Shown here: positions 1 through 64,000 of the stretch, piece by piece
How the letters are laid out: the number at the start of each line of letters is the position of its first letter
Position numbering within the stretch: position 1 is the first letter of the stretch
Source: Myxococcota bacterium
GTDB taxonomy: Bacteria > Myxococcota_A > UBA9160 > SZUA-336
Assembly: GCA_044450765.1 (NCBI GenBank)
Contig: JBIOJK010000007.1
Location: 2,875-66,874, forward strand
Reading direction: 5' to 3'
DNA length: 64,000 bases
The notes under the pieces: generated by a model
Database searches by the model: none
What the model was told of the DNA's origin: nothing
The model's input: the letters and a program-made list of their open reading frames with translations, nothing else
Program-made: the position numbers and the translations under genes

Positions 1-33
1 GTCGCGGCAGCAAAGCCGCCGAGGGAGATCGCA

Positions 34-516
34 ATGAAGACTGCTGTGGCATTCCGCGTCGGTTGCGCGCTGCTCGCGTTCGGGCTCGCGGGTGCCGCCG
101 CGGCTCAGGGTCTGATCATCTATCCGTCGAAGGGGCAATCGCAGGAGCAGCAGAACAAGGACCAGGGCGAGTGTCAGATCTGGGCGAAGAACAACACCGG
201 AATCGATCCGCTTGCGCTCGCGAATCAGGCGTCGCAACCGACGGCGAGCACACAGCCTCAGGGTGAGCGCGCGCGCGGGGCGGTGCGCGGCGCTGCGGGC
301 GGCGCGGCGATCGGCGCGATCGCAGGCGATGCGGGCAAGGGCGCGGCAGCGGGCGCAGCTGCAGGCACGATGGTCGGAGGAGCGCGCCAGCGAGAGAACC
401 AGGCGGCGGCGCAGCAGCAAGCCAACGCAAAGAACCAGAACACCCAGGCGCAGCTCGCCACTTACAACAAGGCGTACGCCGCGTGTCTCGAGGGCCGGGG
501 TTACTCGGTAAAGTGA
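34..516 (+). CDS. Secreted glycine-zipper (Gly/Ala-rich) protein, probable outer-membrane lipoprotein-like
   Basis: ATG at 34. N-terminal signal peptide (MKTAVAFRVGCALLAFGLAGAAAA). Central GxxxG/AxxxA repeat stretch typical of glycine-zipper domains. Q/N-rich tail. Confidence 0.55.
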   Translation: MKTAVAFRVGCALLAFGLAGAAAAQGLIIYPSKGQSQEQQNKDQGECQIWAKNNTGIDPLALANQASQPTASTQPQGERARGAVRGAAGGAAIGAIAGDAGKGAAAGAAAGTMVGGARQRENQAAAQQQANAKNQNTQAQLATYNKAYAACLEGRGYSVK

Positions 517-768
517 ACGGCGCTGCTCGCGGCCCGCGGCAGCGAGCAAGTCGAAGCGCCTCAGTTCCCCGGACGATCGCCGTGAAGGGAAACCGCAACG
601 CCGGCTGCGAACGAACGGCGAATCATTTGGGCCGGGACCGCAGCGCGTCGCGTGAGGTAAGATCGGAGCAGGTGTACTTCGAGACGAATCGAGTGATTCG
701 CGAAGCGTTCGGCGAGGCGAGCTTCCCCGCGCCGGAGCAGCTCGTCGCCGTGCGCCAGAGCGCGTAGC

Positions 769-1305
769 GTGAAGCGGCTCGCGCAGGTCACCCTTGCGCT
801 CGCGCTCGCCGCTTGCAGCTCGATCACGGTCAAGCAGGACTGGGACCCGAGCGCGCACTTCGACGGGCTGAAGACCTGGGTCTGGCAGAGCTCGACTCCG
901 ATCACCACCGGAAACGCCCGCCTCGACGACCCGCTCCTGCACGCGCGGATCCAGACCGCGCTCGCGAGCGCGCTGGCCGCGAAGGGCTACAACAAGGCGA
1001 CTTCGGGGAAGCCCGACTTCTACCTCGCGTATCACATCGCGATCCAGCAGAAGCTCGACGCGCAGACGATCTACACGGGCTACGGCCCGTACCGCGGCTG
1101 GTACGGCGTTGGCGGCGCGCAAACCGTCGTCGACACGTACGACGTCGGCACGCTTCTCGTCGACTTCATTAATCCGGAAACGAACGACGTGATCTGGCGC
1201 GGCACCGCCCAGTCGCGCATACAAGAGCTGAAGACCCCGGAGGAGCGGCAGGCGCGCATACAGGATGCGGTCGATCGCCTGCTCGAACAGTTTCCGCCCA
1301 GTTGA
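769..1305 (+). CDS. DUF4136-like lipoprotein
   Basis: GTG start. Signal peptide with lipobox-like LAACSS. C-terminal VDFINxxxxxVIWRG motif that I recognise from the DUF4136 family. Confidence 0.6.
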   Translation: MKRLAQVTLALALAACSSITVKQDWDPSAHFDGLKTWVWQSSTPITTGNARLDDPLLHARIQTALASALAAKGYNKATSGKPDFYLAYHIAIQQKLDAQTIYTGYGPYRGWYGVGGAQTVVDTYDVGTLLVDFINPETNDVIWRGTAQSRIQELKTPEERQARIQDAVDRLLEQFPPS

Positions 1306-1361
1306 ACAAAGCACAATGCCGCGTCTATCCTGCGGGCCCGAACCGCAACGGAGGGAGTCCA

Positions 1362-2015
1362 ATGAAGGTTCTCGCGATCTCAGCAACGCTTCTCGTCGCC
1401 GCGCTCTCGGCTCAGACCGCTCGCGCCGGGGACGACGACCCCTACAACCGCCCCGGTGGCTACATGGGGGTCGCCGCGTCGATTGGCGTCGGGCTCTTTG
1501 CCGGCTCCGTCAAGGACGCGTTCGGATCGTCTGACTCGTCGGTAGGCGATAGCTGGGGCGCGAACGCGCGCGCTGGCTACCGGTTCAACAGGTTCCTCGC
1601 GGCGGAAGTCGAGTACGAGTGGATGCGCGACTTCAGCATGAACGTCGAGAACGCGCCCACCGTGCCCAACAGCAGCGGCAGCGTGAACATCGGCAAAGTC
1701 CAGGAGCAGACCGTGACCGCAAACCTGAAGGTCATCGCGCCGTACGGCGCGTTCCAGCCGTACTTCCTCGCGGGCATGGGCGCCATCTTCCCGACGGTCA
1801 ACAAGAGCGACAACATCAACTACAACATCACCAACGGGGCGTTCGCGGGCCGTTTCGGCGCAGGCATCGACTACTGGGTGACTCAGAATCTCTCGCTGAA
1901 CCTCGGCGCAGAGGTCGTCGTGAGCAGCGCCAAGGTCTCCGTGCCCGGCGTCAGCGGGTCGGGTCGCGGCATCGACTATCTGTCCGGCCAGTTCGGGTTC
2001 GGCTACCGGTTCTGA
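1362..2015 (+). CDS. Outer-membrane beta-barrel protein (OmpA-like N-terminal barrel / OmpW-like)
   Basis: ATG at 1362 preceded by GGAGGGAG RBS. Signal peptide, alternating amphipathic beta-strand pattern, aromatic girdle residues, C-terminal GYRF with terminal Phe. Confidence 0.7.
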   Translation: MKVLAISATLLVAALSAQTARAGDDDPYNRPGGYMGVAASIGVGLFAGSVKDAFGSSDSSVGDSWGANARAGYRFNRFLAAEVEYEWMRDFSMNVENAPTVPNSSGSVNIGKVQEQTVTANLKVIAPYGAFQPYFLAGMGAIFPTVNKSDNINYNITNGAFAGRFGAGIDYWVTQNLSLNLGAEVVVSSAKVSVPGVSGSGRGIDYLSGQFGFGYRF

Positions 2016-6064: not shown

Positions 6065-6523
6065 TCAGGCGCCGTGGCACTTCTTGAACTTCTTGCCGGA
6101 CCCGCACGGGCAGGGGTCGTTGCGGCCGACCTTGGGTGACTCTCGCACGTAGGGCGCCTGCACCTCGTGGTCGTGGTCGTGCGCGTGGTGATGCGAGTGT
6201 CCGTGCGCGAGCGCGTGCTCGACGTCCGGCAGCATTTCATCGACGGTCTCGCGCAGACCGGGCGCCGCGAACGCCACCAGCGCGCCGAGCAGCGGGACCA
6301 CCTTCGGCACGAGTGAGTCGACCGGGTCGAACTGCTCGGGTACGGCGTGGAAGAGCCAGCCGTGCAGGTCGCCCGAGTCGAGCTCGGCGAGCGGGCGGCC
6401 GATCTCGCCGAGCGCCGCGTTCAGCCGCTCCGCGATCTCCCGGCGCTCGTCCGCGGAAGCGGCGCCGACCGCCCGCGCCTGCTCCGACGCGAGGAACTCC
6501 TCGAGCGCGAACCCGCTAGTCAC
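6065..6523 (-). CDS. SEC-C metal-binding domain protein with His-rich segment
   Basis: C-terminal [17 protein letters not shown] is a canonical SEC-C motif. Preceded by [14 protein letters not shown]. Confidence 0.6.
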
Positions 6524-7446: not shown

Positions 7447-9081
7447 TCACGAAGAGCGGGCGACTCGCAGGCCGTCGCGGAGCAGCGCCTGAGCGGCGCG
7501 CGCGCCGTCGATCGCCGCGCTCATGATGCCGCCCGCACTGCCCGCGCCTTCGCCGACCGGGAACAGATTCTCGAAGCCGGGCGCGCGCAGCGTCTCGGGG
7601 TCGCGCGCGATGCGCACCGGGCCAGAGCTGCGCGACTCGATCCCGACCAAGAGCCCCTGCGCCGAGGCGAAGCCCGGCAGCGTGCGCTCGAAGCGTGCGA
7701 GCGCGTGGCGGAGCGCGTCGCGCACGCGCTCCGGCAGGAGTGAGTCGATCCGAGCGGCGCGCAGGCCGAAGCGGTAGCTCGAGCGGCCGACCGTCCGACT
7801 CGCGGCGCCGGCGAGAAAGTCGGGCGCCCGCTGCGCCGGCGCGCTGTAGTCGGCGCCGCCGAGCTCGAAGCAGCGGCGCTCGAGCTGCTCCTGCAACTCG
7901 ACCCCGGCGAACGCCCCCGCGCCGAACTCGCGCGGGCCGAGCGTCGTCACGACCGCCGCGTTGGCGTGGCGCGAGGAGTGCCGCGAGTTGCTCATTCCGT
8001 TCGTACACAAGAGGCCCGGCGCCGAGACACTCGCCACGATCTGGCCGCCCGGGCACATGCAGAAGCTGTGCGCGCCCGGCGCGCCGTCGCCCGCCTTGCA
8101 GGTGAGCGCATAGTAGGCTGGGCCGAGCGCGCGCGCTTCGGGTGAGTCGCCGTAGCGCCCGCGGTCGACGAGCTCCTGCGGATGCTCGATGCGCGCGCCG
8201 AGCTGAAACGGCTTCGCCTCGACCGGCAGCCCCTGCACCGCGAGCGCGCGCCAAGTGTCTCGCGCGCTGTGACCCGGCGCGAAGATCAGGGCATCGCAAG
8301 CGAGCTCGCCGCGCGTCGTCTCCAGCGCGGCGACCCGGCCCGCCGCGACCTTCAAGTGGTCGACGCGCGTGCGCCAGTGAAAGCGCACGCCCGCGGCTTC
8401 GAGTCGCGCGCGGAGCCGCGGCAGGATCCGGTGCAGGCGGTCGGTGCCCACGTGCGCGCGCGCGTCGTAGAGGATCTCTTCGGGCGCCCCGCACAGGACG
8501 AGCTCCTGGAGAATCGGGGCCTCCAGCTCGTGCTCGACGCGCGTGTAGAGCTTGCCGTCCGAGTAGGTGCCCGCGCCGCCCTCGCCGAACAGCAAGTTGC
8601 TCTCGGGGTTCGGCACCCGCGAGCGCTGGAATGCGGCCAGGTCGCGTCCGCGCTCGCGCAGCTCGGCACCGCGCTCGAGCAGGTCGACGGCGACACCGCT
8701 GCGCGACAGCGCGAGCGCGGCGAACAGGCCCGCGGGTCCGGCGCCCAACACCGAAATGCGCCGGCCGGCGAGCGACGCGTGCACGCGCTCGACCTCGATC
8801 CGGCCCGGCTCGGGCGCCGGCACGACGCGGCCCGCGCGTTCGGCGCGCGCCAGCGCGTCGGAGCGGAACCCCGCGTCGACCGCGAGATCCGCGTGAACCA
8901 CGAAGCGCAAGCGCCGCTCGCCGCGCACGCGCCGCGCGTCGACGGACTTCCGCGCGATGCGGAAGCCGCGCAGGTCCGCCGCGCCGATCCCCGCGGCCGC
9001 GAGCGCGCGCTCCCGCAACACGCTCTCGGGCTCGCCGATTCCGAGCTCGATGCCGAGCGCGCGCCAGGTCACGAGCGGCAC
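7447..9081 (-). CDS. NAD(P)/FAD-dependent oxidoreductase (COG2509-like FAD-dependent dehydrogenase)
   Basis: GxGxxG dinucleotide fold (ISVLGAGPAGLFAALAL). Last gene of the ABC-2 operon, 9 bp after the ATPase stop. A larger overlapping 779-aa ORF is rejected. Confidence 0.6.
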   Translation of the reverse strand: MPLVTWRALGIELGIGEPESVLRERALAAAGIGAADLRGFRIARKSVDARRVRGERRLRFVVHADLAVDAGFRSDALARAERAGRVVPAPEPGRIEVERVHASLAGRRISVLGAGPAGLFAALALSRSGVAVDLLERGAELRERGRDLAAFQRSRVPNPESNLLFGEGGAGTYSDGKLYTRVEHELEAPILQELVLCGAPEEILYDARAHVGTDRLHRILPRLRARLEAAGVRFHWRTRVDHLKVAAGRVAALETTRGELACDALIFAPGHSARDTWRALAVQGLPVEAKPFQLGARIEHPQELVDRGRYGDSPEARALGPAYYALTCKAGDGAPGAHSFCMCPGGQIVASVSAPGLLCTNGMSNSRHSSRHANAAVVTTLGPREFGAGAFAGVELQEQLERRCFELGGADYSAPAQRAPDFLAGAASRTVGRSSYRFGLRAARIDSLLPERVRDALRHALARFERTLPGFASAQGLLVGIESRSSGPVRIARDPETLRAPGFENLFPVGEGAGSAGGIMSAAIDGARAAQALLRDGLRVARSS

Positions 9082-12305: not shown

Positions 12306-12310
12306 CCGCG

Positions 12311-12907
12311 ATGAGCACCCTCGGGTCGATCGGGCTGAAGGTCTCCACCGGGCGGGCGGTCGTCGTGGTGCTGCGCGGGACTCGCGTGCTGCCGGAGATG
12401 GTCGTGCGCTACGAGATCTCGCTCTCCGATCCGTGGCTGCCTGAGTCACTCCATCCGTATCACCAGGAGCTCGGCCGGTCGGGCACGGAGGGCGAGGAAG
12501 CGCGGGTGCGAGGCTGCCGCGCGGCACAGGCATCTGCGCGCAGTGCGATCCGCGGCCTGGTCGCCGAGATGAAGGCGCACGGTCTTCGACCCTGCGGCGC
12601 CGTGCTGGTCGTGCGCAGCCTCGGCGACCCGAACGCGGTCACGGGCGCGCATGCGCGCGCGCACGCGCTGGAGGCGTCGCTCTACGGAGAGTCAGCGGCG
12701 CAGACGCTCAGAGAGTGCGGCGTCCGAGTCGCGCTGCAGGAAGAGAAGACGGTGAAGGCGTGGGCCGTGCGCGAGCTGCGCCAGACTGCACGCCACGCCG
12801 ACGCAATGCTGAAGATGTTCGTGCGCCAGGTCGGCACGCCCTGGCGATCGGACGAGAAGGAAGCCGCGCTGGCGGCCTGGGTCACTCTGCCAGATCGAGA
12901 AGACTGA
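12311..12907 (+). CDS. Hypothetical protein
   Basis: ATG 6 bp after the upstream stop. 198 aa. Coding-like composition. No recognisable domain. Confidence 0.4.
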   Translation: MSTLGSIGLKVSTGRAVVVVLRGTRVLPEMVVRYEISLSDPWLPESLHPYHQELGRSGTEGEEARVRGCRAAQASARSAIRGLVAEMKAHGLRPCGAVLVVRSLGDPNAVTGAHARAHALEASLYGESAAQTLRECGVRVALQEEKTVKAWAVRELRQTARHADAMLKMFVRQVGTPWRSDEKEAALAAWVTLPDRED

Positions 12908-12911
12908 CTGA

Positions 12912-14195
12912 CTACGCGTGCTTCGCCTGCAGGTCGCGCTCGAGCGTGCGCGCGGCGAGCAGATAGTGGAGCGTCGCCCACGCCGCGCCGACCGTGACGA
13001 TCCACAGCAGTGCGTAGCGCAGGGACTCGTCCCCGTAGGTCGGCTTCAGGTGATCCGAGACGATCCCGACCATGAGCGGTCCGCCGCCCAGGCCGATCAG
13101 GTTGATGATGAAGAGCAGGATCGCGGAGGCGAGCGCGCGCATCTGCGGGCGCACGAGCGTCTGAGTCATCGCGAACGTCGGCCCGAGATATACGCCGCCG
13201 AGCAAGGTTCCGGGAATCGACAGCAAGATCGCCGTGCGCGGATCGGGCCAGAGATAGAAGATGACCGCGAACGGAATTGCGAGCGTCGAGGCGATCGCGG
13301 GCACCCGCATGTACCAGCGCGCGTCGCGCTGGGCCAGGCGATCCGAGATCGCGCCGCCCAGCGCGATGCCGATCACGCCGGTCGTGAGCGCGATCAGGCC
13401 GAGCCACGCGCCGACTTCGAGCTTGTCCATGTGGTGCACGCGGATCAGAAACACCGGCACGAAATACGCGGCGCCGTAGCCGTAGAAGGCGTGCAGCGAG
13501 GCGCCGAAGGACATGTGCAGGAACGAGGGCAGGCGCATCATGAACCCGAGCACCTCGCGCACGCTCTCCTGCGCCTTGGGCTCGCCGGACTTCGGCGCGT
13601 CGAACCCGCCGCGTGGCGGCTCCCGCAGAGTGAGTCGCACGATCACCGCGAGCAGCGCGCCGGGAACTCCGACCGCCAGGAACGCGGTGCGCCAGCCGTA
13701 GTGATGCCCGAGGTAGCCGCCGAGAATCGAGCCGAGCGCTCCGCCGATCGGGATGCCGAGCGAGTAGATCGCGAGCGCCGTCGCGCGGCGCTCGGGCGGA
13801 AACAGATCGGAGATGAGTGAGTGCGACGGCGGGCTGCCGCCCGCTTCGCCGATTCCGACGCCGACCCGCGCCGCGACGAGTTGGCCGAACGTCGCCGCGA
13901 GCCCGGTGAGCGCAGTCATTCCGCTCCAGACGAAGAGCGAGAGAGCGACGATCGTGCGACGCGATCCGGTGTCGGCCCAGCGCGCGATCGGCAGGCCGGC
14001 GAACGTGTAGAACAGCGCGAACGCGATTCCCGACAGGAAGCCGAGCGCGGTGTCGCTGAGGTCGATCTCCTTGCGGATGTCCTCGGCGAGAATCGACAGA
14101 ATCTGCCGGTCGACGAAGTTCAGCACGTAGACACCGAGCAGAACGCCGAGCGCGTAGCGCCGATAGCCGTTCGAGAATGGCATAGGGTTCGACAT
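12912..14195 (-). CDS. MFS transporter
   Basis: 12 TM. MFS motif A-like GxLaDRxGrR. Start at MSNPMPF (ATG 14195), with alternative upstream ATGs to 14237. Confidence 0.75.
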   Translation of the reverse strand: MSNPMPFSNGYRRYALGVLLGVYVLNFVDRQILSILAEDIRKEIDLSDTALGFLSGIAFALFYTFAGLPIARWADTGSRRTIVALSLFVWSGMTALTGLAATFGQLVAARVGVGIGEAGGSPPSHSLISDLFPPERRATALAIYSLGIPIGGALGSILGGYLGHHYGWRTAFLAVGVPGALLAVIVRLTLREPPRGGFDAPKSGEPKAQESVREVLGFMMRLPSFLHMSFGASLHAFYGYGAAYFVPVFLIRVHHMDKLEVGAWLGLIALTTGVIGIALGGAISDRLAQRDARWYMRVPAIASTLAIPFAVIFYLWPDPRTAILLSIPGTLLGGVYLGPTFAMTQTLVRPQMRALASAILLFIINLIGLGGGPLMVGIVSDHLKPTYGDESLRYALLWIVTVGAAWATLHYLLAARTLERDLQAKHA

Positions 14196-15806: not shown

Positions 15807-16319
15807 ATGAGTGACTCGGCGCGCTCTCGCGGGCTCTTGAAGGAACTCGGGGTCACGGCGCTCTTGGCGGCCGCGCTGATCGCGCTCGCCGTGGGCTCGG
15901 GGGCGCTGCCGGCCTTCGGCTCGCTCTTTCGGCCAGGCGGGGGCGATCGCTGGGCGAACGATCCGGCCCGCGTGCAGAAGCACGTCGACATCGCGCTGGA
16001 GCTCGCGCTGCGCGAAGTCGATGCGACGCCGGAGCAGATCGCGCAGGTGAAGTCCGTCGCGGCGGGTCTCGTGGCCGACCTCGAGAGCCTGGCCGCGCAG
16101 CACCGCGCGCACCGCGACGCTCTGCTCGCGCAGCTGCAGCAGCCCGACCTCTCGCGCGAGGTGCTGCAGTCGATCCGCGCCGAGGAGCTCGCGCTGGTCG
16201 ACTCGGCCTCGGTGCGCGTGGTCGACGCGCTGGCCGACGCCGCGGCCGCGCTTTCGCCAAAGCAGCGCGCCGATCTGATCGAATGGGCACGCGAGCTGCA
16301 CGGTCACGACGCGCCCTGA
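15807..16319 (+). CDS. Spy/CpxP-family periplasmic protein (LTXXQ motif family)
   Basis: Signal/TM segment, all-helical Ala/Leu/Gln-rich protein of 170 aa located immediately upstream of the OmpR-family RR and HK. Preceded by a GGAGGATGA RBS. Confidence 0.55.
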   Translation: MSDSARSRGLLKELGVTALLAAALIALAVGSGALPAFGSLFRPGGGDRWANDPARVQKHVDIALELALREVDATPEQIAQVKSVAAGLVADLESLAAQHRAHRDALLAQLQQPDLSREVLQSIRAEELALVDSASVRVVDALADAAAALSPKQRADLIEWARELHGHDAP

Positions 16320-16359: not shown

Positions 16360-17067
16360 ATGCCCGATCGCATTCTGTTGATCGACGACGACTCACGCCT
16401 CTCCGCGATGCTCGCGGAGTATCTCGGCGCGCGCGGCCTGGAAGCCGTCGCGCGGGCCGACGCGGCGAGCGGGCTCGCGGAGCTCGAGCGCGGGCAGTTC
16501 GCGGCGATCGTGCTCGACGTGATGCTCCCGGACGGAGACGGCTTCGAGGTCTGCCGGCGCGTCCGCGCGCGCTCGGACATCCCGATCCTGATGCTCACCG
16601 CGCGCGGCGACGAGGAGGACCGGATCGTGGGCCTGGAGATCGGCGCCGATGACTATCTGCCGAAGCCGTTCAATCCGCGCGAGCTGCTCGCGCGGCTGCG
16701 CGCGATCCTGCGCCGCCGCGGCGCCGCCCCCGCACGCAGCGGGGCGGTCCTGCGCTTCGGCCGGCTCGAGCTCGACCGCGACGCGCGGCTCGTGCGCGTC
16801 GATGGCGAAGACCGCCCACTCACGGCGCACCAGTTCAACCTGCTCGTCGCGCTGGCCGAGAACGCGGGGCGCGTGCTGTCTCGCGACGCGCTCATGAATC
16901 TGGTGCGCGGCGAGTCACTCGAGGCGTTCGACCGCAGCATCGACGTGCACGTCTCGCGCATCCGGGCCGCGATCGAGGACGATCCGCGGCACCCGCGCCG
17001 GCTGCTGACCTTGCGAGGCGCGGGCTACGTGTTCGCGCGCAGGCAGGACGAAGCCGGGGACCTTTGA
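16360..17067 (+). CDS. OmpR-family response regulator (CpxR-like)
   Basis: Receiver domain (DDD..D52..K) and winged-helix trans_reg_C (RGAGYVF). Confidence 0.9.
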   Translation: MPDRILLIDDDSRLSAMLAEYLGARGLEAVARADAASGLAELERGQFAAIVLDVMLPDGDGFEVCRRVRARSDIPILMLTARGDEEDRIVGLEIGADDYLPKPFNPRELLARLRAILRRRGAAPARSGAVLRFGRLELDRDARLVRVDGEDRPLTAHQFNLLVALAENAGRVLSRDALMNLVRGESLEAFDRSIDVHVSRIRAAIEDDPRHPRRLLTLRGAGYVFARRQDEAGDL

Positions 17068-18329
17068 TGCGGCGGCTCTATCTCCAGATCTATCTCACCG
17101 TGCTCGCCATCGTGCTCGTGTTCGCGGTGCTCCTGGCGACCTCGTGGTCGCTGTTCGGGCCGTCGCGCGCGGAGCAGCAGCGCTTCGTCGCGACCGCCGC
17201 GAACGTGCTCGCGCGCAGCTTGCCGCCTGCCGACGCGCCCGCGGCGAGCCAACAGGCAGCCGTCGCGGAGCTGGCCCGGGATCTCGACGCGCGACTCACG
17301 CTGCGCGACGCGAGCGGATCGCTGCTCGGTCACGTGGGCGACGAGCTGCCGGCGCCGAGCTCCGAGCTGCTCGAGGGCACCGCGCTGAGCGCGCGCCCGC
17401 CCGCGATGTTCGCGCTGCGACTGCCCGACGGGCGCACCCTCTCGAGCTCGCGCAGTCATCAGCCCGTCGCCACCGCGATGTTCCTGGCGCTGTTCGCCGC
17501 GGCGATCGCGATCGGCGCGTATCCGGTCGTGCGGCGCATCACGCGGCGGGTCGAGACTCTGCGCGCGCAAGTCGAGGCGCTCGGCGCGGGCGACCTCTCG
17601 GCGCGCGTGGAGGTACGCGGCAAGGACGAGATCGCGAGCCTCGCCCGGAGCTTCAACCGCGCGGCCGAGCGGATCGAGAGGCTCGTCGCCGCGCAGCGCG
17701 GCGCGCTCGCCGCGGCCTCGCACGAGCTGCGTTCGCCGCTCGCGCGCATCCGAGTCGCGATCGAGCTGCTGGGCGGCGCGGAGGGCGACGAGCTCCGCGC
17801 GCGTGTCGCGCGCGACGTCTTCGAGCTCGACGCGCTGATCGGCGAGCTGCTGCTCGCCAGCCGCCTGGACGCGCTCGAGCCGGGCCAGGCGCTCGAGCGG
17901 CGCGAGTCGGTCGACTTGCTCGGCCTCGCGGCCGAGGAAGCGGCGCGCACCGGCGCCGAGTGCAGCGGCGCGCCCGTGGTCGTGGCCGGCGATCCGACGC
18001 TGCTGCGCCGGCTGATCCGCAACTTGCTCGAGAACGCGCGCCGGCACGCGCGCGGTGCGGAGGTCGAGATCGACGTCTCGAATCACTCGCCCGGCCGCGC
18101 GCGCATTGCGGTCGCGGACCGCGGGCCCGGCGTCCCCGACTCCGAGCGCGAGCGCATCTTCGAGCCGTTCTACCGCCCCGCCGGCGCCAGTGAGTCGCGC
18201 GACGGCAGCTTCGGCGTCGGCCTTGCGCTCGTGCGCCAGATCGCGCGCCATCACGGTGGAAACGCGCGCTGTCTCGGGCGCGAAGGCGGCGGGACCGTGT
18301 TCGAGGTCGCGCTGGGAGGGGCAGAGTGA
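17067..18329 (+). CDS. Sensor histidine kinase (HAMP-HisKA-HATPase, CpxA-like)
   Basis: Two TM segments flanking a periplasmic loop. H-box SHELRSPL. N, G1 and G2 boxes. The ATG overlaps the RR stop (ATGA). Confidence 0.85.
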   Translation: MRRLYLQIYLTVLAIVLVFAVLLATSWSLFGPSRAEQQRFVATAANVLARSLPPADAPAASQQAAVAELARDLDARLTLRDASGSLLGHVGDELPAPSSELLEGTALSARPPAMFALRLPDGRTLSSSRSHQPVATAMFLALFAAAIAIGAYPVVRRITRRVETLRAQVEALGAGDLSARVEVRGKDEIASLARSFNRAAERIERLVAAQRGALAAASHELRSPLARIRVAIELLGGAEGDELRARVARDVFELDALIGELLLASRLDALEPGQALERRESVDLLGLAAEEAARTGAECSGAPVVVAGDPTLLRRLIRNLLENARRHARGAEVEIDVSNHSPGRARIAVADRGPGVPDSERERIFEPFYRPAGASESRDGSFGVGLALVRQIARHHGGNARCLGREGGGTVFEVALGGAE

Positions 18330-18910
18330 GTCGCTCGGGTTGCGGGCTCGTGGCCCTCGCCGCGGCGATCGCTCTCGGGTTCGGAGCGGTGCGTGTCGGC
18401 CAGCGCCTCTCCGATGGCCCGCTGCTCGGGCTGATCTCGGGTGGGCCTCTGCTCACGGGCGAGAGAGTCACCGAACGGGACATCGACTGGCCCGCGGTCC
18501 TGGGTGAGCACCCGAAATGGATCGAGCTCCAGCTCGTCGAGCCGCCGACTTCGAGAACCACGGGGGTCCTGGTGCGCGAGGGCCAGCTCTACGTCCCGTG
18601 CGACCTCGGCTTCCTGTGGAACCGGTTCTCGGGACCCATGCACGCGATGGGACATCTGATCCACGTCTTCAAGCGCTGGCACGAGGACGCGCTCCGCGAC
18701 GGACGCGTGGTGTTGCGCATCGAGGGGAAGCGCTACGAGCGCCAGGCGGTGCGAGTGACTGATCCCGAGCTCACGGCTGCGCTCCGCAGCCAGATGGAGG
18801 ACGGAGTCAGACGGTGGCTGTCACCCGGCGCTCTGGGAGCGCCGCCGGCCGAGGGCCCGAGCGACATCTGGTTCTTCCGCATGGAGCCGCGGCCCGCTAG
18901 ACCACCGTGA
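18326..18910 (+). CDS. Hypothetical single-pass membrane protein, family member A (paralog of 41783..42283)
   Basis: GTG overlapping the HK stop. N-terminal TM. Shares DGPL..GGPL, SRTTxVLVxEG..PC, GKRY and WFF+xEPRP blocks with the protein at 41783. Confidence 0.5.
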   Translation: MSRSGCGLVALAAAIALGFGAVRVGQRLSDGPLLGLISGGPLLTGERVTERDIDWPAVLGEHPKWIELQLVEPPTSRTTGVLVREGQLYVPCDLGFLWNRFSGPMHAMGHLIHVFKRWHEDALRDGRVVLRIEGKRYERQAVRVTDPELTAALRSQMEDGVRRWLSPGALGAPPAEGPSDIWFFRMEPRPARPP

Positions 18911-20466: not shown

Positions 20467-21107
20467 CGGCCGACTTCGGAGCTCTCGATCGTCTCCGGCT
20501 CGGCTGCAGCGGCAGCGGCCCACTCGCGCATCGCGGGAAGCTGGACGAGTGACTCGGCGTAGTCGTCCTGCACGCCGTAGGTCGCGAAGCGGAACGCGAC
20601 CGGCGCGTACATCGCGTCGGCGATCGTGAAGGCGCCGAACAGGAACGGGCCACGCGAGCCCGCCTGCCGGCGGCACGCGCTCCAGATCTCGCGGACGCGC
20701 GCGACGTCCTGCTCGAGCTCCGGCGTCGACCGCACGCGCCGGCCCCGCGCGCGCACGTTCATGGGCATCTGCGCGCGGAGTGACTGGAAGCCGGAGTGCA
20801 TCTCCGCCGAGGCCGCGCGCGCCAGCGCCCGCCGCTGCGGCTCGCGCGGCCACAGCTGTCGCTCCGCGAACGAGTCGGCGAGATATTCGCAGATGGCGAG
20901 CGAGTCCCACACGTAGACGTTCTCGTGACGCAGCACCGGCACCTTGCCTGCGGGCGACCACGGGCGCACGCGGTCGGCGAACTCCGGCGAGCCGAGGGCG
21001 ACCCGCACCTCTTCGAACTCGAGCCCGCTCTGGCGCAGCGCGAGCCACGGGCGCAGCGACCACGACGAGTAGTTCTTGTTCCCGATCATCAGGGCCAGCG
21101 CGGTCAC
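20463..21107 (-). CDS. Glutathione S-transferase (YfcF/Ure2p-like)
   Basis: GST N and C domains. 214 aa. Confidence 0.75.
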   Translation of the reverse strand: MTALALMIGNKNYSSWSLRPWLALRQSGLEFEEVRVALGSPEFADRVRPWSPAGKVPVLRHENVYVWDSLAICEYLADSFAERQLWPREPQRRALARAASAEMHSGFQSLRAQMPMNVRARGRRVRSTPELEQDVARVREIWSACRRQAGSRGPFLFGAFTIADAMYAPVAFRFATYGVQDDYAESLVQLPAMREWAAAAAAEPETIESSEVGR

Positions 21108-22501
21108 GCGCTGCGCTCCGGCCGGAGCACCCAGGTCTTGAGACTCTCGCGCGGAAGCTCCGCGTCGGGCTCGAAGCCGGCGCGGCCGGCCCCGAGCGCG
21201 GAGTGAGTCGCTTCCGAGATCAACACGCCGCCGACCGGAGCGCTCTTCTGCAGGTGACCCGCGACGTCGAGCACCGGGCTGTACGCGACGCCGCTCGCCA
21301 GGTCGACGGCCGAGCGCCCCGTGTGGATTCCGATGCGCACGCGGAACGCGCGCTCGAGCAGGTTCTCGCGCGCGTTCCAGGCCGGCAGCGCGGCGAGCAG
21401 CGCGCGCGCGCAGGCCACCGCGGCGGCGGCGGAATCGAAGAACGCCATGACCTCGTCGCCGTTCGAGTTGAGGATGCGCCCGGCGTGCTCGTGCACGCGC
21501 TCGCCGATGTAGCCGCGGAAGCGCTCGAACGACACGAACACGCGCTCCGGCCGCGGCTCACTCGCCTTCAGCCCGTACGAATCCGCGATGTCGACGTCGA
21601 GGAAGCTGCCGTCGCGCACGAACTCGCGCTCGAGGCGCGCCTCGAGATCGACGCGCGCCTCCATCACGCGGCGCAGCCCGCCCTCGCCAGGAGCCGCCGC
21701 GGAGTCGTCGCTCTCGACGGCGGTGCGCGCCAGCTCGAGCCGCAGGCGCACGGCGTCGGCGAGGCTGATCTCGTCGCCGTGCGCCAGCGTGACCTCGCCC
21801 GAGACGAGCTCGCCGTTGCGCAGCGTCGGATTCGTCTGACTGCGGTTGCGCAGCACGATCCGCTCGCCCTCGCGCGCCAGCTCCGCGTGCAGGCGGGAGA
21901 CACCCGGGTCGGCGAGCACCACGTCGCAGTCCGGCTGGCGGCCGAGCCGGATCAGCTCGCCCAGCAGCGGGAAGCGCGCGCCCTGCAGCCGCCCCGGCGC
22001 CTCGAGGACGGCGATCTGGCCCCATACACCGCTGGGTGTACGGAGCACGGTGGTCTGCGCCGCGGCCTCGTCGACCCGGATGATCTCGGTGCGCTCCTCG
22101 CGCCGGCCCGGCGCCGCGGCGGCGGCCTCGCCGAGCCCGCGCACCTCGAGCGTCACGCGGCCCATGCGGATGCGGTCTCCCGGGCCGACGACGCGCCGCC
22201 GCACGGGCTCGCCGTTCACCAGAGTGGGATTCGCAGCCGTTGCCAGGTGCTCGAGCGCCCAGCCGTCGCCACCGAGCCGCAGGCGCGCCTGCCGCGCGGA
22301 CACGGAGCGGTCGCGCAGCCGCACGCGGTCCTCGCGCGCGCTCGTCTCGTCTCCGCGCCCGATCTCGACCTCGGGCCGCATGACGCTGAGCCGCGCGCCG
22401 CGATCCGCGCCCTCGACCACGATCAGCGCGAGCCACGGGCCGATGCCGGGCGCGCCAGACTCGTTCGGTTGGCGGCCGCTCCGCCGGTTCCACCAGGACA
22501 T
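21104..22501 (-). CDS. Adenylate/guanylate cyclase with two N-terminal FHA domains
   Basis: Two FHA-like segments (GR..DV......VSR.HA.L) followed by a class III cyclase domain. Confidence 0.75.
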   Translation of the reverse strand: MSWWNRRSGRQPNESGAPGIGPWLALIVVEGADRGARLSVMRPEVEIGRGDETSAREDRVRLRDRSVSARQARLRLGGDGWALEHLATAANPTLVNGEPVRRRVVGPGDRIRMGRVTLEVRGLGEAAAAAPGRREERTEIIRVDEAAAQTTVLRTPSGVWGQIAVLEAPGRLQGARFPLLGELIRLGRQPDCDVVLADPGVSRLHAELAREGERIVLRNRSQTNPTLRNGELVSGEVTLAHGDEISLADAVRLRLELARTAVESDDSAAAPGEGGLRRVMEARVDLEARLEREFVRDGSFLDVDIADSYGLKASEPRPERVFVSFERFRGYIGERVHEHAGRILNSNGDEVMAFFDSAAAAVACARALLAALPAWNARENLLERAFRVRIGIHTGRSAVDLASGVAYSPVLDVAGHLQKSAPVGGVLISEATHSALGAGRAGFEPDAELPRESLKTWVLRPERSA

Positions 22502-26589: not shown

Positions 26590-26596
26590 TCGACTC

Positions 26597-27397: not shown

Positions 27398-27409
27398 ACT
27401 GTCTGGCGT

Positions 27410-37366: not shown

Positions 37367-38781
<1,415 letters not shown>

Positions 38782-42283: not shown

Positions 42284-43128
42284 GTCCGGGCGCGCTCGTA
42301 CTCGAGAACGCCGCCGTCGCGATCGCGGTCCTGCCCGAGCTCGGCGGGAAGATCGCGAGCCTCGTGAACCGCGCGACCGGGCGCGAGTGGCTGTGGCGAA
42401 ATCCGTACCTTCCGTATCGCCGCGCCGCGCCCGGCGACTCGTACGTTGCGCTGCACGACACGGGCGGAATCGACGAGTGCTTCCCGACGGTCGCGCCGAC
42501 GGACTCGCTTCCCGATCACGGCGAGCTGTACTCGCAGGCTTGGACGGTCGAGCGGCGCACCGACGACTCACTCGTCACGAGCGTGCCGGGGCCACGCGCG
42601 CGCTACCGCTTCCAGCGTACGCTCCACCTGGCGCGCGCGGCGGCGCGGCTCGATCTGGACTACCGGCTGGAGAATCTCTCCGACGGCGAGCTGCCCTTCG
42701 TCTGGTGTCTCCATCCACTGTTCGCGATCGAGCCCGGCATGCGCATCGAGCTGCCGGACTCGCCTCCGCTGTGTGTCCCTGATCCGAGCAGCCGCGATTT
42801 CGCGCCCTCGGCGTCGAAGACATTCGCGGGACCACTCACCCGCGGCGAGGTCGGGCTCGTGACCGCGGACGGCGGCGAGGCGCTGCGTCTGCGCTTCGAC
42901 CCGGCCCAAACTCCGTTCGTCGGCGTGTGGCGGAACTTCGCGGGCTGGTCCGGCGCAGGAACGCCACCCTACTTCAACCTGGCGCTCGAGCCCTCGATCG
43001 GGGACTCGGACAGCCTCGACGAAGCAATCGCGCGCGGGACCGCGGGCCTGCTCGCGCCGCGCGCGGTGCGGAGCTGGCGGGTCGCGATCGAGCTCTCCCC
43101 CGAGCAAGCCGCCCCCGACCTCGCGTAG
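42280..43128 (+). CDS. Aldose 1-epimerase (galactose mutarotase-like) family protein
   Basis: The GTG overlaps the upstream stop. Pattern consistent with the mutarotase-like fold. Tentative. Confidence 0.45.
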   Translation: MSPGALVLENAAVAIAVLPELGGKIASLVNRATGREWLWRNPYLPYRRAAPGDSYVALHDTGGIDECFPTVAPTDSLPDHGELYSQAWTVERRTDDSLVTSVPGPRARYRFQRTLHLARAAARLDLDYRLENLSDGELPFVWCLHPLFAIEPGMRIELPDSPPLCVPDPSSRDFAPSASKTFAGPLTRGEVGLVTADGGEALRLRFDPAQTPFVGVWRNFAGWSGAGTPPYFNLALEPSIGDSDSLDEAIARGTAGLLAPRAVRSWRVAIELSPEQAAPDLA

Positions 43129-43150: not shown

Positions 43151-44017
43151 ATGAAGGTCGGTCTCATCCCCGTGAACGTCGGCGTGGCCAGTGTCGAGTC
43201 CATGCTCGCGCTGGCCGAGAAGGCCGAGCAGGTCGGCATCGAGTCACTCTGGACGTTCGAGCATGTCGTGGTGCCGCTCGACTACAAGTCGAAGTACCCG
43301 TACAGCCCCGACGGCAAGATGGCGGTCACGCCCGAGACGAACTTCGTCGACCCGCTCGTCGCGCTGACCGCGATCGCCGCGCGCACGAAGCGCGTGCGGC
43401 TCGGCACCGGCGTGAACATCCTCTCGCAGACGAACCCGCTGTATCTCGCGAAGCAGGCCGCCAGCATCGACTTCGTCTCGAAGGGTCGACTCATGCTGGG
43501 CCTCGGCATCGGCTGGCTGCGCGAGGAGTTCGAGGCGCTCGGCGTTCCCTTCGAGCGCCGCGGCGAGCGCTTCGACGACTACGTGGTGGCCATGCGCAAG
43601 GCTTGGTCGGGCGACGTCGTCGCGCACAAGAGTGACTTCGTCGATTGGAGCGGCTTCAAGACCTTCCCGATTCCGGTGCAGCGACCCGGCGTGCCGATCG
43701 TGATCGGCGGCGCGAAGGGCAAGGCGTTCGAGCGCGTCGCGAAATACGGCGACGGCTGGTACGCCCCGACCGCGAACATTGCCCAGCTCGAGCCGATGCT
43801 GAAGGACTTGCGCGCCGCCTGCGCGAAGATCGGCCGAGACCCGAAGACGATCGAAATCTCGTGCATGTGGATCCCGGCCGCCGAGGGCCCGGTCGCCGTG
43901 AAGCGCTACGAGGAGCTCGGCGTGAGTCGCCTGATCGTCCCGGTCATGGCGCTCGGCGCGCCGCCGCTCGAGGCGATCGAGCGCTTTGCAAATGAGTGGC
44001 TGCCGAAGCTGGCTTAG
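43151..44017 (+). CDS. LLM-class F420/flavin-dependent oxidoreductase
   Basis: Luciferase-like TIM barrel. 288 aa. Confidence 0.7.
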   Translation: MKVGLIPVNVGVASVESMLALAEKAEQVGIESLWTFEHVVVPLDYKSKYPYSPDGKMAVTPETNFVDPLVALTAIAARTKRVRLGTGVNILSQTNPLYLAKQAASIDFVSKGRLMLGLGIGWLREEFEALGVPFERRGERFDDYVVAMRKAWSGDVVAHKSDFVDWSGFKTFPIPVQRPGVPIVIGGAKGKAFERVAKYGDGWYAPTANIAQLEPMLKDLRAACAKIGRDPKTIEISCMWIPAAEGPVAVKRYEELGVSRLIVPVMALGAPPLEAIERFANEWLPKLA

Positions 44018-46141: not shown

Positions 46142-46963
46142 ATGTACCAGCAGATTCGCGTCGAGCCGATGGCGGGCGCGCTCGGCGCCGAGGTCTCGGG
46201 GGTGGAGCTCCAGAAGCCGCTCGACGGCGAGAAGCTCGCCGAGATTCGGCGCGCGTGGCTCGCTCACCAGGTGCTGTTCTTCCGCGATCAGCCGCTCAGT
46301 GTCGACGAGCACAAGGCGTTCGCGCGGCGCTTCGGTGAGCTGCACATCCACCCGGTGCTGCAGCAGATGGCCGATCAGGGTCACCCCGAGATCGTCGTGC
46401 TCGAGAGCGATGCGCGGCGTCCGGTCGTCGCCGACCGCTGGCACAGCGACGTCACCTTCGAGCGCGAGCCGCCGCTCGGCTCGATCCTGCGCGCCGTCGA
46501 GGTGCCCGAGATGGGCGGCGACACGATGTGGGCCAGCATGACGGCCGCCTACGACGCGCTGTCGGAGCCGATGAAGGCGCTGCTCGCGCCGCTGCGCGCG
46601 AGTCACAGCGGCGCCGGCTTCCGCAGGCGTGCGACCGAGGACCAGCGCGACGCGCTCGCCCAGAACGAGACCCACTCGCACCCGGTGATCCGGACTCACC
46701 CCGAGACTGGACGCAGGGCGATCTTCGTCAACTCCGCGTTCACTCGGTCGATCGACGGCATGAAGCCGCGCGAGAGCGCCGCGCTGCTCGAGTTCCTGTT
46801 CGAGCACCTGACCTCGCCGGAGTTCTCGTGCCGCTTCCGCTGGCGCAAACACTCGATCGCGATGTGGGACAACCGCTGCACGCAACACCGCGTGGTGGCC
46901 GACAATCTCACCGCCTACCGGCGCATGGAGCGAGTGACTCTGCTCGGCGACCGGCCGTACTGA
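46142..46963 (+). CDS. TauD/TfdA family alpha-ketoglutarate-dependent dioxygenase
   Basis: WHSDVTFE metal-binding HxD motif and the distal His and Arg (HRV) of the TauD family. GAGGAGG RBS. Confidence 0.8.
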   Translation: MYQQIRVEPMAGALGAEVSGVELQKPLDGEKLAEIRRAWLAHQVLFFRDQPLSVDEHKAFARRFGELHIHPVLQQMADQGHPEIVVLESDARRPVVADRWHSDVTFEREPPLGSILRAVEVPEMGGDTMWASMTAAYDALSEPMKALLAPLRASHSGAGFRRRATEDQRDALAQNETHSHPVIRTHPETGRRAIFVNSAFTRSIDGMKPRESAALLEFLFEHLTSPEFSCRFRWRKHSIAMWDNRCTQHRVVADNLTAYRRMERVTLLGDRPY

Positions 46964-53004: not shown

Positions 53005-53425
53005 GGTTCCAGCCCGTCCGCTCGTAGAGCCGAGCGGCGGCGTCGGTCGCGGTGTCGAGCACGAGCAGCGACCTTCCGGCGCGTGCGGCGCGGGCCTCGG
53101 CTTCGGCCATGAGTCGTCGGCCGATTCCGCGCCGCCGGTGAGAGACGGCGACCAGCAGCTTCTGCACGTCGGCGCGGTGCCGCTGGTTCTCGGGCGCGGC
53201 GAGGACGACGGTGACGGTGCCGACGAGTACAGCGCCATCGCGCGCGCCCAGGACGATCCGGCGGCCGGCCGCGCCCTCGGCGAGTGAGTGGCGCCAAAAT
53301 ACGGCGGCCTTCGCCGGGTCGAGCGGATGCAAGAAGCCGACGGACGCGCCGTGGGCGGTCGCCTCGACCAGCAGGCCGGCGAGCGCGACGACGTTCGCCG
53401 GCGAGTCCGCGAGTGACTCGCTCAT
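52925..53425 (-). CDS. GNAT family N-acetyltransferase
   Basis: Acetyl-CoA binding motif VSHRRRGIGRRLM. The ATG overlaps the upstream TGA. Confidence 0.7.
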   Translation of the reverse strand: MSESLADSPANVVALAGLLVEATAHGASVGFLHPLDPAKAAVFWRHSLAEGAAGRRIVLGARDGAVLVGTVTVVLAAPENQRHRADVQKLLVAVSHRRRGIGRRLMAEAEARAARAGRSLLVLDTATDAAARLYERTGWNLTGAIPGYALLPNGAPCATSIYWKNV

Positions 53426-60418: not shown

Positions 60419-60910
60419 GTGTCTCACACCCTCCCCGAACTCGAGCGCCTCGTGATCACCGTTGACGAATTCGTCGAGCGCCTGTGCAAGATCTGCGGGG
60501 ACCCCGGCGCGCGGCCGCTCCCGCGCGCGCGCCGCGACCGCGAGATCCTGATGCAGAGCATCCTCATGTCACTCGACAGCGCGCGCAGCTACGACGAGGC
60601 TGAACTCAACGAGCTCCTGCGGACCTGGCTGCGCGAGATCGCGCCCGCAATCGAAAGCGACCACGTGACTCTCCGCCGGATGCTGGTCGACTACGGCCGC
60701 CTCGAGCGCACCGCGAGCGGCAGCGCCTACCGCGTCGGGTTCCCGCCGAGAGCGACCGCGTTCGAGCTGGCCATCTACGACCTCGACTTGCGCGGCACGA
60801 TCACGGCCTACCGCGAGCGGAGCGCCGCGCGGCGCCGGACGAGGGGCGCCGCGGCCGGAACGAGTCACTCTGCAAAGCCGAAGGGCGCGGAACCCGAAGC
60901 GGAGTCCTGA
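60419..60910 (+). CDS. DUF2087-like protein
   Basis: 163 aa. The central region resembles DUF2087. Tentative. Confidence 0.4.
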   Translation: MSHTLPELERLVITVDEFVERLCKICGDPGARPLPRARRDREILMQSILMSLDSARSYDEAELNELLRTWLREIAPAIESDHVTLRRMLVDYGRLERTASGSAYRVGFPPRATAFELAIYDLDLRGTITAYRERSAARRRTRGAAAGTSHSAKPKGAEPEAES

Positions 60911-62424: not shown

Positions 62425-62485
62425 GGTGCGCCGGAGAAGCTACTCCAAGGCGCGCGAGTCGCGTAGGATCCTCGATCCGCGCGGG

Positions 62486-63046
62486 ATGGGCGCCTCCGGC
62501 GCGAGGCTGGCGAACTGCGCTCGTGTTTCGGATCGTTGGCGCGTGCCCGCCGGGCTTCGCCACGCGCTCGCGATCGCCATCCTTCCGGTGACGGTGACGA
62601 TCGTCGTCCCGATCTGGATCGGGCGGCGCTTCGGGACGTCGGTCTCGTTCCCGGACGCGTTCTTCGAGTCACTCTCGCTGGCGATCGGGCTCGTCTGTCT
62701 CGGGCTCGGAGCGGCTCTCTTCGCTGCTTGCTTGCGCCGCTTCGTCGGCGAGGGCGAGGGGACGCTCGCGCCGTGGGATCCGCCGCGCGCGCTCGTGCTG
62801 AATGGGCCGTACCGCTACGTGCGCAATCCGATGATCTCGGGGGTGATCGCGGTGCTGCTCGGCGAGGCGCTGTGTCTGCGCTCGCTGCCGCACTTCGCCT
62901 GGGCGCTCGTCTTCACCGCCATGAACCTGGTCTACATCCCGCTCATCGAGGAGCCGGGCCTCGAGCGGCGCTTCGGCGAGGCGTACCGCCGCTACTGCGA
63001 GAACGTGCCGCGCATCGTCCCGCGCGCGACGCCGTGGCAGGGCTAG
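62486..63046 (+). CDS. Isoprenylcysteine carboxyl methyltransferase (ICMT)/phospholipid methyltransferase family membrane protein
   Basis: 4-5 TM. C-terminal GPYRYVRNPMI...EE..LERRFGE.Y..Y signature. Confidence 0.7.
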   Translation: MGASGARLANCARVSDRWRVPAGLRHALAIAILPVTVTIVVPIWIGRRFGTSVSFPDAFFESLSLAIGLVCLGLGAALFAACLRRFVGEGEGTLAPWDPPRALVLNGPYRYVRNPMISGVIAVLLGEALCLRSLPHFAWALVFTAMNLVYIPLIEEPGLERRFGEAYRRYCENVPRIVPRATPWQG

Positions 63047-63056
63047 AGAGCGGCGC

Positions 63057-63989
63057 GTGAACGACCAGATCCTGGCACGGATCGAGCGCGAGCTGGGAGT
63101 CACCGGCCTGGCGGAGCGGCTGTCCGGCCGCATCCAGCAGGCGGACCTCCACTCACTCCTGCTCGAGGTGTTTCGCAAGCGGGCGGGCGAGCGCAGCCCG
63201 GCCGACGTGCTGGCGGACTACGCGGCGAACCGCCTCGTGCGCCCCTCGACCGCCGACCCGCGCGCGCTCGCGCGCTTCGACGCGGCGGCGTTCGCGGCGC
63301 TGCCGCGCGGGTTCGAGGCGATCGAGCTGTCGCCGGTCTCGCCGCTCGGCACGAGCTCGGTGCTGGCGACGGTGCATCAGGACAAGGCGCTGGCGTCGAT
63401 CCGCTCGGTCGAGGTGCTCTCCGACGCGACGAACGTGCTCGCGCTCGAGTGCGCGCTGCGCCGGCGCAAGTCGCGCGAGCCGGTGCACCTCGCGGCGAGT
63501 CACCGCCACCTGCGCACGCAGGCGTTCAGCGGGTCGCTCTCATTCGCGCACTTCCGGCTGTTCGCGCTGTGCAGCGCCGGGAGTGACTCGCGCGGCGTGC
63601 GCTTCCACCAGAGCGCTTGCGACGCGCATCTGCGCTTCTACGCGGAGCTCTTGCGCGCATTCGTGGGCCCGAGCGTCGCCCTGCGGGTCGCGCTGACCGA
63701 CCTCGACTCCGAAGCCCCGCGCGCCGCGCTGCGCTGGGACGACCCGCGCGTCGAGGTCGTCTTCGACCAGTCGCGCGCGTCCGGCCGCGGCTACTACACC
63801 GACGTGTGCTTCAAGATCCACGCGCGCGACCCGGGCGGAACCTGGCTCGAGCTCGGCGACGGCGGCGCGGTCGACTGGACGCGCAAGCTCCTCTCGAACG
63901 CGAAGGAGCGCCTGGTGATCAGCGGCATCTCGAGCGAGCGCATCTGCGCGCTCACGGGCGCGGCGGCAGGCGGCGCTCGAAGCGAGTGA
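63057..63989 (+). CDS. Hypothetical protein
   Basis: GTG start, 310 aa, coding-like. No domain recognised. Confidence 0.4.
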   Translation: MNDQILARIERELGVTGLAERLSGRIQQADLHSLLLEVFRKRAGERSPADVLADYAANRLVRPSTADPRALARFDAAAFAALPRGFEAIELSPVSPLGTSSVLATVHQDKALASIRSVEVLSDATNVLALECALRRRKSREPVHLAASHRHLRTQAFSGSLSFAHFRLFALCSAGSDSRGVRFHQSACDAHLRFYAELLRAFVGPSVALRVALTDLDSEAPRAALRWDDPRVEVVFDQSRASGRGYYTDVCFKIHARDPGGTWLELGDGGAVDWTRKLLSNAKERLVISGISSERICALTGAAAGGARSE

Positions 63990-64000
63990 GCCGCACGCGA

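Follow-up and report, generated by a model that had tools for sequence, protein, structure and literature searches.

A 64,000-bp stretch of Myxococcota DNA (contig JBIOJK010000007.1, 70.2% GC; here called the window) carries a hyper-abundant asymmetric word, ASTCACT (S = G or C), that an as yet unrecognized DNA-level process writes into genes. In the word-positive DNA studied, a total of 121 kb consisting of the 64-kb window and ~57 kb from relatives, ASTCACT occurs about once per kb and its extended form GASTCACTC about once per 3 kb. At somewhat less than even odds, we propose that ASTCACT is the recognition word of a new self-DNA recognition system in soil Myxococcota, either a "species barcode" for uptake/recombination or an asymmetric site guiding methylation or repair, and that congeneric species gained or lost it in the recent past. 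The reading that we favor, with a probability of roughly 0.3, is that of an uptake- or recombination-type self-recognition word that would have been spread by molecular drive.

Enrichment of the word in the window

Genes were predicted with our own codon-usage caller, which yielded 72 genes over 94% of the window. Word counts were compared with Markov models of orders 0 to 3, with synonymous-codon shuffling within each gene (500 shuffles), and with whole-codon shuffling. The original prediction had described the 9-mer pair GAGTSACTC, and all twelve copies were recovered at exactly the positions reported. Expected numbers for this pair are 0.34, 0.79, 0.68, and 0.93 (Markov orders 0, 1, 2, and 3), 0.96 ± 0.91 with a maximum of 6 (synonymous shuffling), and 0.47 (whole-codon shuffling), so that the strong enrichment claimed for it holds (12 versus 0.3 to 0.96 across the Markov orders and the synonymous shuffle). 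The claimed enrichment of the 7-mer GAGTCAC/GTGACTC also stood, whereas the figure of roughly 50 further copies was slightly high: 52 are present in all, 40 of them outside the twelve 9-mers. GACTCAC/GTGAGTC amounts to 41, and the 7-mers exceed the codon-aware nulls 4.5- to 9-fold, far beyond 2-fold.

An unbiased k-mer ranking placed sub-words of the motif at the head of the over-represented words that contain A or T. Against the order-3 Markov model, AGTCA/TGACT and ACTCA/TGAGT came first among 5-mers and AGTCAC and ACTCAC among 6-mers, and the highest-ranked 7-mers found more than once or twice were AGTCACT (37 versus 3.9 expected) and ACTCACT (28 versus 2.8). Overall, the window holds 152 ASTCAC sites, or one per ~420 bp; 65 of these are full ASTCACT, compared with ~10.6 by synonymous shuffling (5.5 for AGTSACT plus 5.1 for ACTCACT/AGTGAGT).

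As outside controls, we used 80 loci from other genomes that encode a DHS-like protein, 20 of which have 68 to 73% GC (347 kb). No enrichment was observed in any of these, and a general property of high-GC coding DNA was rejected as an explanation. GASTCACTC was found 20 times in the 64-kb window and not once in the 347 kb, and its S=G variant 26 times in the 121 kb of word-positive DNA versus 0 in 600 kb of word-negative DNA. Likewise, AGTCA occurs 128 times in the window, compared with 16.8 expected from the control-locus frequencies. The dispersed core and the full 9-mers are located as follows.

1..64000, both strands: dispersed ASTCAC(T) core, assessed by Markov, codon-shuffle, and other-genome controls
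12443..12451, + strand: GAGTCACTC, full 9-mer, S=G variant
16912..16920, + strand: GAGTCACTC, read in frame (GAG TCA CTC) by the response-regulator gene 16360-17067
36506..36514, + strand: GAGTCACTC, with an inverted AGTGACT 9 nt downstream at 36523
43241..43249, + strand: GAGTCACTC
60862..60870, + strand: GAGTCACTC
62666..62674, + strand: GAGTCACTC
15809..15817, - strand: GAGTCACTC (reading GAGTGACTC on the + strand), overlapping the start of gene 15807-16319 (ATG AGT GAC TCG)
20547..20555, - strand: GAGTCACTC
23123..23131, - strand: GAGTCACTC
46932..46940, - strand: GAGTCACTC
53411..53419, - strand: GAGTCACTC
63581..63589, - strand: GAGTCACTC
36291..36299, + strand: GACTCACTC, full 9-mer, S=C variant, not palindromic
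36993..37001, + strand: GACTCACTC
42565..42573, + strand: GACTCACTC
6311..6319, - strand: GACTCACTC (reading GAGTGAGTC on the + strand)
7738..7746, - strand: GACTCACTC
13628..13636, - strand: GACTCACTC
18324..18332, - strand: GACTCACTC, where genes 17064-18329 and 18326-18910 overlap by 4 bases
21201..21209, - strand: GACTCACTC

The recognizable unit is asymmetric

Profiles of 203 ASTCAC and 85 ASTCACT copies from word-positive DNA carry information only across ~11 bp, c-G-A-S-T-C-A-C-T-C-g. The flanks (c-G...C-g) are weak, the tolerance profile is graded over 7 to 9 informative positions, and one-mismatch neighbors of the word are enriched 3- to 10-fold. Description of the motif as a near-palindrome with an S center had to be abandoned: nonpalindromic ACTCACT/AGTGAGT is as enriched as AGTCACT/AGTGACT (each ~10-fold), while the mirror variants ACTCAGT/ACTGAGT show no enrichment and the everted form ACT.AGT was found only twice versus 4.3 expected. 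AGT.ACT (37 copies) is equaled by the direct arrangements ACT.ACT/AGT.AGT (39 copies), and the 121 kb contain 26 copies of GAGTCACTC and 16 of GACTCACTC but only 2 of the mirror word GAGTCAGTC. Since the recognizable unit is asymmetric ASTCACT, the near-palindrome is merely its S=G version.

Several further models of the unit were rejected. The contexts of 75 ASTSAST copies share nothing past the word and hold no information beyond ~11 bp, which excludes a longer repeat element, such as a repetitive extragenic palindrome (REP) or a miniature inverted-repeat transposable element (MITE). No other spacing of a dimeric half-site model is enriched, and A/T pairs at distance 2, which a general W-N-W periodicity would raise, are under-represented overall (0.87).

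GTSAC and GAGTC/GACTC had been put forward as methylation or restriction subsites within the motif. After removal of the long-word copies, however, GASTC occurs 234 times per 100 kb in the window versus 228 in word-free sister species, and GTSAC 145 versus 124 times. Both are thus at the sister-species baseline, and a palindromic methylase site of the type seen in the highly iterated palindrome HIP1 is not indicated.

Placement of the copies points to action on DNA

In raw counts, the sense strand of genes exceeds the antisense strand 4:1, with xAS TCA CTx as the main frame. Five of the six frame and orientation classes can occur within genes, the sixth being blocked by an in-frame TGA stop. 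Relative to the synonymous-shuffle null, the word is enriched 5.4-, 6.9-, and 17.7-fold in the sense frames and 5.9- and 12.7-fold in the two antisense frames. The raw bias is therefore attributed to stop codons and codon cost, and an RNA- or translation-level signal, which the sense excess had suggested, was rejected because the null-corrected enrichment extends equally to every frame and to the antisense orientation. Enrichment of 5- to 18-fold in all five possible classes, independent of frame and gene orientation, points to a DNA-level feature, as had been proposed. In line with the earlier description, copies occupy all three reading frames, for instance as GAG TCA CTC GAG in the response-regulator gene (at 16912) and AAG TCA CTC GAG in the DHS-like gene (at 5688), and they use rare A/T-ending codons: the word covers 1.5% of the window and accounts for 8.8% of its A/T third positions.

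Copies lie where proteins are permissive. Amino acid identity at codons under the word was 0.77 versus 0.83, 0.68 versus 0.80, 0.70 versus 0.77, and 0.69 versus 0.81 for other codons, and lineage-variable segments hold as many copies as conserved segments, or more. At least one ASTCAC site is present in 66 of the 72 called genes. Intergenic density is about that of coding DNA, with 12 fully intergenic sites versus 16.7 expected in four word-positive data sets.

No strand polarity was detected in the window (ASTCAC, 80 on the + strand versus 72 on the - strand; ASTCACT, 30 versus 35), where the cumulative GC skew climbs monotonically, which suggests that it lies in a single replichore. This bears on a polar signal for recombination or segregation, Chi-like or other, i.e., a hotspot for RecBCD/AddAB or a guide for FtsK like the FtsK-orienting polar sequences (KOPS). 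Chi, too, is an asymmetric 7- to 8-mer, over-represented through genes and lineage specific (PMC4390886). Such a signal is nevertheless disfavored by the lack of polarity despite the monotonic skew, and the G-rich words known for Chi and KOPS are enriched no more than a few-fold, whereas ASTCACT is enriched >40-fold over other genomes. We consider this explanation highly improbable.

The 152 ASTCAC sites are spaced slightly more evenly than Poisson (variance-to-mean ratio, 0.64 to 0.83), and no pair spacing is preferred besides the word itself. Two local arrangements, ACTGACTGACT at 12903-12913 (the end of gene 12302-12907) and an inverted pair AGTCACT/AGTGACT 9 nt apart at 36507-36529 (within gene 35759-37366), are isolated cases, no spacing being enriched overall.

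Even spacing and a site in nearly every gene would suit a HIP1-like selected site, bound by a lineage-specific chromosomal protein and held at a regular coverage of ~1 per kb. Candidates for such a protein would be a methyltransferase (orphan or asymmetric, Type IIS/IIG/III-like), a protein associated with the nucleoid, or a factor that targets repair. The equal density in four diverged species (see below) suggests a set point, and HIP1, like ASTCACT, is about as dense within genes as between them (PMC5861425); it is also 15- to 300-fold over-represented, found in all frames, and missing from some members of its clade (PMC5861425, PMC4390886). On the other hand, ASTCACT is not palindromic, its palindromic subsites are at baseline, and its copies appear to be conserved no more than background, unlike those of HIP1 (PMC5861425). 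Together, these three points disfavor a HIP1-type methylase palindrome; an asymmetric methylase site, however, may be compatible with baseline subsites. Inspection of the gene lists of the window and the flanks, which was not an exhaustive search, revealed no DNA methyltransferase or candidate binding protein. Taken together, a HIP1-like site appears rather unlikely to us.

Close relatives carry or lack the word

The close relatives compared are syntenic with the window at ~78 to 85% nucleotide identity and were analyzed over flanks of ~20 kb. Loci L083, L084, and L085 represent one species (99.9% identity) in three independent short-read assemblies (ENA, MEGAHIT style; JGI; and GCA_035498875.1), L086 is from JGI 3300037878, and L087 is from GCA_035498015.1. 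L081 and L082 are two ENA assemblies with contigs of 2.8 to 2.9 Mb, and L001 is a short-read SPAdes metagenome-assembled genome (MAG). Genes for an outer membrane protein (OMP), an MFS protein, an FAD-dependent protein, an ABC ATPase, and an ABC permease are intact in near-identical L081 but split into fragments in L082 (7076-18084); the splits look like indel errors of long-read assembly and not like biology.

The word has the same density as in the window in L083/84/85, L086, and L087 (three related species) and is therefore not confined to the window. L081/L082 and L001, which are as close (~80% DNA identity) and syntenic, are word-negative or nearly so. ASTCAC occurs 43 to 57 times per 100 kb in L081/L082, 22.6 times in unrelated high-GC loci, and 14 times in L001. 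The residue in L081/L082 may be the decaying remains of a word since lost and, if so, would imply loss instead of independent gain. The branching order of the window, L083, L081, and L001 is a star (81, 75, and 65 informative sites), on which a single gain is not distinguishable from loss or repeated gain.

An artifact of assembly or sequencing (base-calling errors at a modified motif, or planted or chimeric sequence) could be suspected, since the clearest word-negatives, L081 and L082, look like long-read assemblies, as judged only by their 2.8- to 2.9-Mb contigs and the split genes of L082. Base calling that masks the word in these two was rejected because they show no ASTCGC excess, and the word-negative genomes in general lack such a compensating excess. 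Moreover, five further loci, independent of one another and drawn from four sources (ENA, two JGI metagenomes, and the NCBI MAGs GCA_035498875.1/GCA_035498015.1), have equal density, the short-read relative L001 is word-negative, and the changes are mostly synonymous or permissive, with reading frames intact. The five positive loci, the negative short-read L001, and the lack of an ASTCGC excess effectively refute an artifact, for which we see only a vanishing chance.

Metagenomes and viral contigs were screened for two 9-mers within 30 bp, which returned mostly low-GC tandem repeats and chance matches; no word-rich virus was found among the viral contigs screened in this way. In the metagenome matches (L088-L167), GAGTSACTC pairs lie mostly in tandem arrays of low-GC contigs, with 98 to 186 ASTCAC per 10 kb in L127, L103, L139, and L137. 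These arrays are micro- or minisatellite-like and unrelated to the Myxococcota word.

Copies arise by point substitution and turn over

Approximately 9 kb could be aligned across the window, L083, and L081. The 7-mer family has 21 hits in the window (~17 loci), 23 in L083, and 0 in L081; about 6 of the 17 window loci occupy the same column as in L083, and the others are private to one lineage. Where the partner lacks a copy, differences fall at any word position, most commonly as G/C replacing the A/T bases, and TCGC stands instead of TCAC at 11 of 21 sites compared with L081. The word is thus made in resident DNA through point substitutions where change is tolerated, mostly in third codon positions; species gain and lose single copies, and the overall density holds. 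In-place conservation between word-positive species was 18 to 48% for the 6-mer, 27 to 38% for the 7-mer, and 26 to 41% for control k-mers (7 to 28 copies per comparison, at ~20% divergence). Comparison of the three L083-species samples gave ~25 single-nucleotide polymorphisms (SNPs), none of which touches or creates a site, a weak test with ~0.3 expected by chance.

ASTCGC occurs 209 to 277 times per 100 kb in word-positive and word-negative close relatives alike (158 in the short L087 sample), and AGCGACT 20 times per 100 kb in the window and 18 to 24 times in word-negative genomes. CpG deamination or another single-site hotspot (TCG to TCA) was rejected, as precursors show no depletion and, together with the product, add up to a 4-fold higher total. 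These undepleted precursors, together with the many starting sequences and the several kinds of substitution, argue against one hotspot.

The same data bear on the view that ASTCACT is a functionless, neutral by-product of a lineage-specific, context-dependent bias in mutation or mismatch correction, for example, through a very-short-patch (VSP)-type enzyme that resolves mismatches to A/T in the context of the word. The G/C bases that word-negative relatives mostly have at its A/T positions, turnover of copies at what appears to be the background rate, and presence or absence among close relatives, which fits one enzyme gained or lost, are all in keeping with this view. Against it, the precursors are undepleted in both groups, and contributions come from the flanks and from each of the four A/T positions, so that several directed substitutions would be needed. 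Known VSP systems, in addition, drive toward G/C and not A/T. The SNP data add a weak argument in the same direction. A neutral origin of this kind is the classical alternative debated for HIP1 (PMC5861425); for ASTCACT, we judge it unlikely.

Uptake-type molecular drive as the favored reading

Under the reading that we favor, a sequence-specific DNA-recognition protein restricted to word-positive lineages would favor the transmission of word-bearing DNA. In the best-precedented form, conspecific DNA would be preferentially taken up and then incorporated by homologous recombination, as with the uptake signal sequences (USS) of Pasteurellaceae and the DNA uptake sequences (DUS) of Neisseriaceae. 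Mutations that better the match would be over-transmitted (molecular drive), and purifying selection on proteins would set the limit. Myxococcota possess type IV pili as well as machinery of the competence type. The anatomy of the word appears to fit an uptake sequence best because it has an asymmetric graded core with enriched near-matches and lies at permissive positions in either orientation and every frame, and also because of a composition unlike that of the genome and its presence or absence among close relatives. The size and specificity of the enrichment, the lack of strand polarity, the near-even spacing, and the evidence against a single-site hotspot likewise count in favor of this reading.

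Several points weigh against an uptake sequence. Known uptake sequences are 2- to 10-fold denser intergenically, often as inverted terminator pairs, with 35 to 65% located in open reading frames (PMC2817400). ASTCACT shows no intergenic excess in the four data sets (12 versus 16.7 expected), and no pair spacing is enriched, hence no terminator-type inverted pairs. Copies of DUS are reported to be highly conserved (PMC2397512), and orthologous ASTCACT copies are common to species no more often than average k-mers (25 to 48%), although at ~20% divergence and in small numbers. The receptor of the proposed uptake system is hypothetical, with no competence gene tied to the word, and only ~0.12 Mb of word-positive DNA stands behind the statistics. 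We found no paper describing an uptake sequence in Myxococcota. Whatever probability the explanations named here leave falls to something not listed.

Other features of the window

Compared with the loci of 68 to 73% GC, the window is rich in alternating CG words (CGCG, 4,486 versus 2,950 expected; GCGC, 4,162 versus 2,637) and poor in CGTCA/TGACG (74 versus 177), ATGACG/CGTCAT (9 versus 48), GGCC, and CCGG. CTAG is strongly avoided (16 versus 52).

Two paralogue arrangements are conserved in the relatives: two tandem OMP beta-barrel genes at 1362-2674 and three tandem YCII-like genes with common N termini (VEFMLLIEDRR...) at 29834-32642. The 1.7 kb between the ECF sigma-factor and aminotransferase genes (26583-28280; GC, 0.66) contains one ASTCAC site and appears to be a variable insertion point; L086 and L087 hold different genes at this position. 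At 34230-38781, three large genes are adjacent: an AMP-ligase-like gene, an enoyl-CoA hydratase-like gene (536 amino acids), and a gene of 477 amino acids. This segment is word-dense (14 sites in 4.9 kb) and did not align to the fetched flanks of relatives; its genes may resemble an aerobic benzoyl-CoA (box) cluster.

Significance of the word

Searches of the literature by sequence and by topic found no earlier description of ASTCACT, in agreement with the original prediction, whose assignment to the class of hyper-abundant short genomic words (HIP1, uptake sequences) was also borne out. Within this known phenomenon, ASTCACT represents a new phylum and a distinct set of properties. To our knowledge, only a few hyper-abundant words are understood (Chi, USS/DUS, and KOPS), and HIP1 still lacks an explanation after three decades. 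In the present case, syntenic species that are ~80% identical either carry or lack the word, which amounts to a natural experiment. Since word-positive and word-negative sister species exist, comparative genomics should be able to find the gene responsible, be it for a receptor, a methylase, or a repair enzyme, and the same design lets mutation-driven origins be told apart from those based on selection or drive.

Extrapolation from the measured density gives an estimated ~10,000 copies per genome in word-positive species. The word skews codon usage (TCA, AGT, and ACT codons) and affects k-mer-based binning of MAGs and taxonomic signatures. Should it prove to be an uptake sequence, it would have no precedent beyond Pasteurellaceae and Neisseriaceae and would come from a phylum whose genomes measure 10 Mb at 70% GC. 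It could also be of use as a marker or transformation enhancer for these organisms.

Comparison with known systems

Hyper-abundant short words have been recognized in the form of Chi, uptake sequences, and HIP1 (PMC4390886). Chi, KOPS, and the architecture-imparting sequences (AIMS) resemble ASTCACT as short, asymmetric, lineage-specific oligomers that are over-represented across coding DNA. They are G-rich, moderately over-represented, and skewed with replication, whereas ASTCACT is unskewed (80 versus 72) and far more enriched. In the VSP-repair footprints of Escherichia coli (Dcm/Vsr), a context-dependent repair enzyme shifts short-word abundance genome-wide without selection. Known footprints of this kind change abundance less than ~2-fold and restore G/C; ASTCACT, in contrast, is an A/T-enriched product at >40-fold, with precursors undepleted.

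HIP1 of cyanobacteria (GCGATCGC) and ASTCACT are both hyper-abundant words of octamer scale that lie within and between genes in all frames. As with ASTCACT, HIP1 exceeds codon-aware nulls (15- to 300-fold), is missing in some members of its clade, and has a debated function (PMC5861425, PMC4390886). HIP1, however, is a perfect palindrome that holds the sites of two orphan methyltransferases and has copies conserved between genomes, while ASTCACT is asymmetric, with unenriched palindromic subsites and turnover apparently at the background rate.

From the USS of Pasteurellaceae (AAGTGCGGT / ACAAGCGGT) and the DUS of Neisseriaceae (GCCGTCTGAA and dialects), ASTCACT differs in phylum and in its unrelated sequence, in the lack of an intergenic excess or inverted terminator pairs, and in copies that are not demonstrably conserved above background. 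Other features are shared. USS and DUS are likewise asymmetric, with a strong core and weaker flanks over 9 to 12 bp, and occur at ~1 copy per kb, tens- to hundreds-fold over chance (PMC2817400, PMC2397512, PMC3630211, PMC1939737). They, too, lie in both orientations and all frames, at permissive codons and less conserved residues (PMC2817400, PMC2397512), and are surrounded by enriched one-mismatch neighbors in a graded pattern (PMC3458573, PMC1939737). Finally, USS and DUS share with ASTCACT a composition unlike the genome average and are present, absent, or dialectal among related lineages (PMC3630211, PMC1626085).

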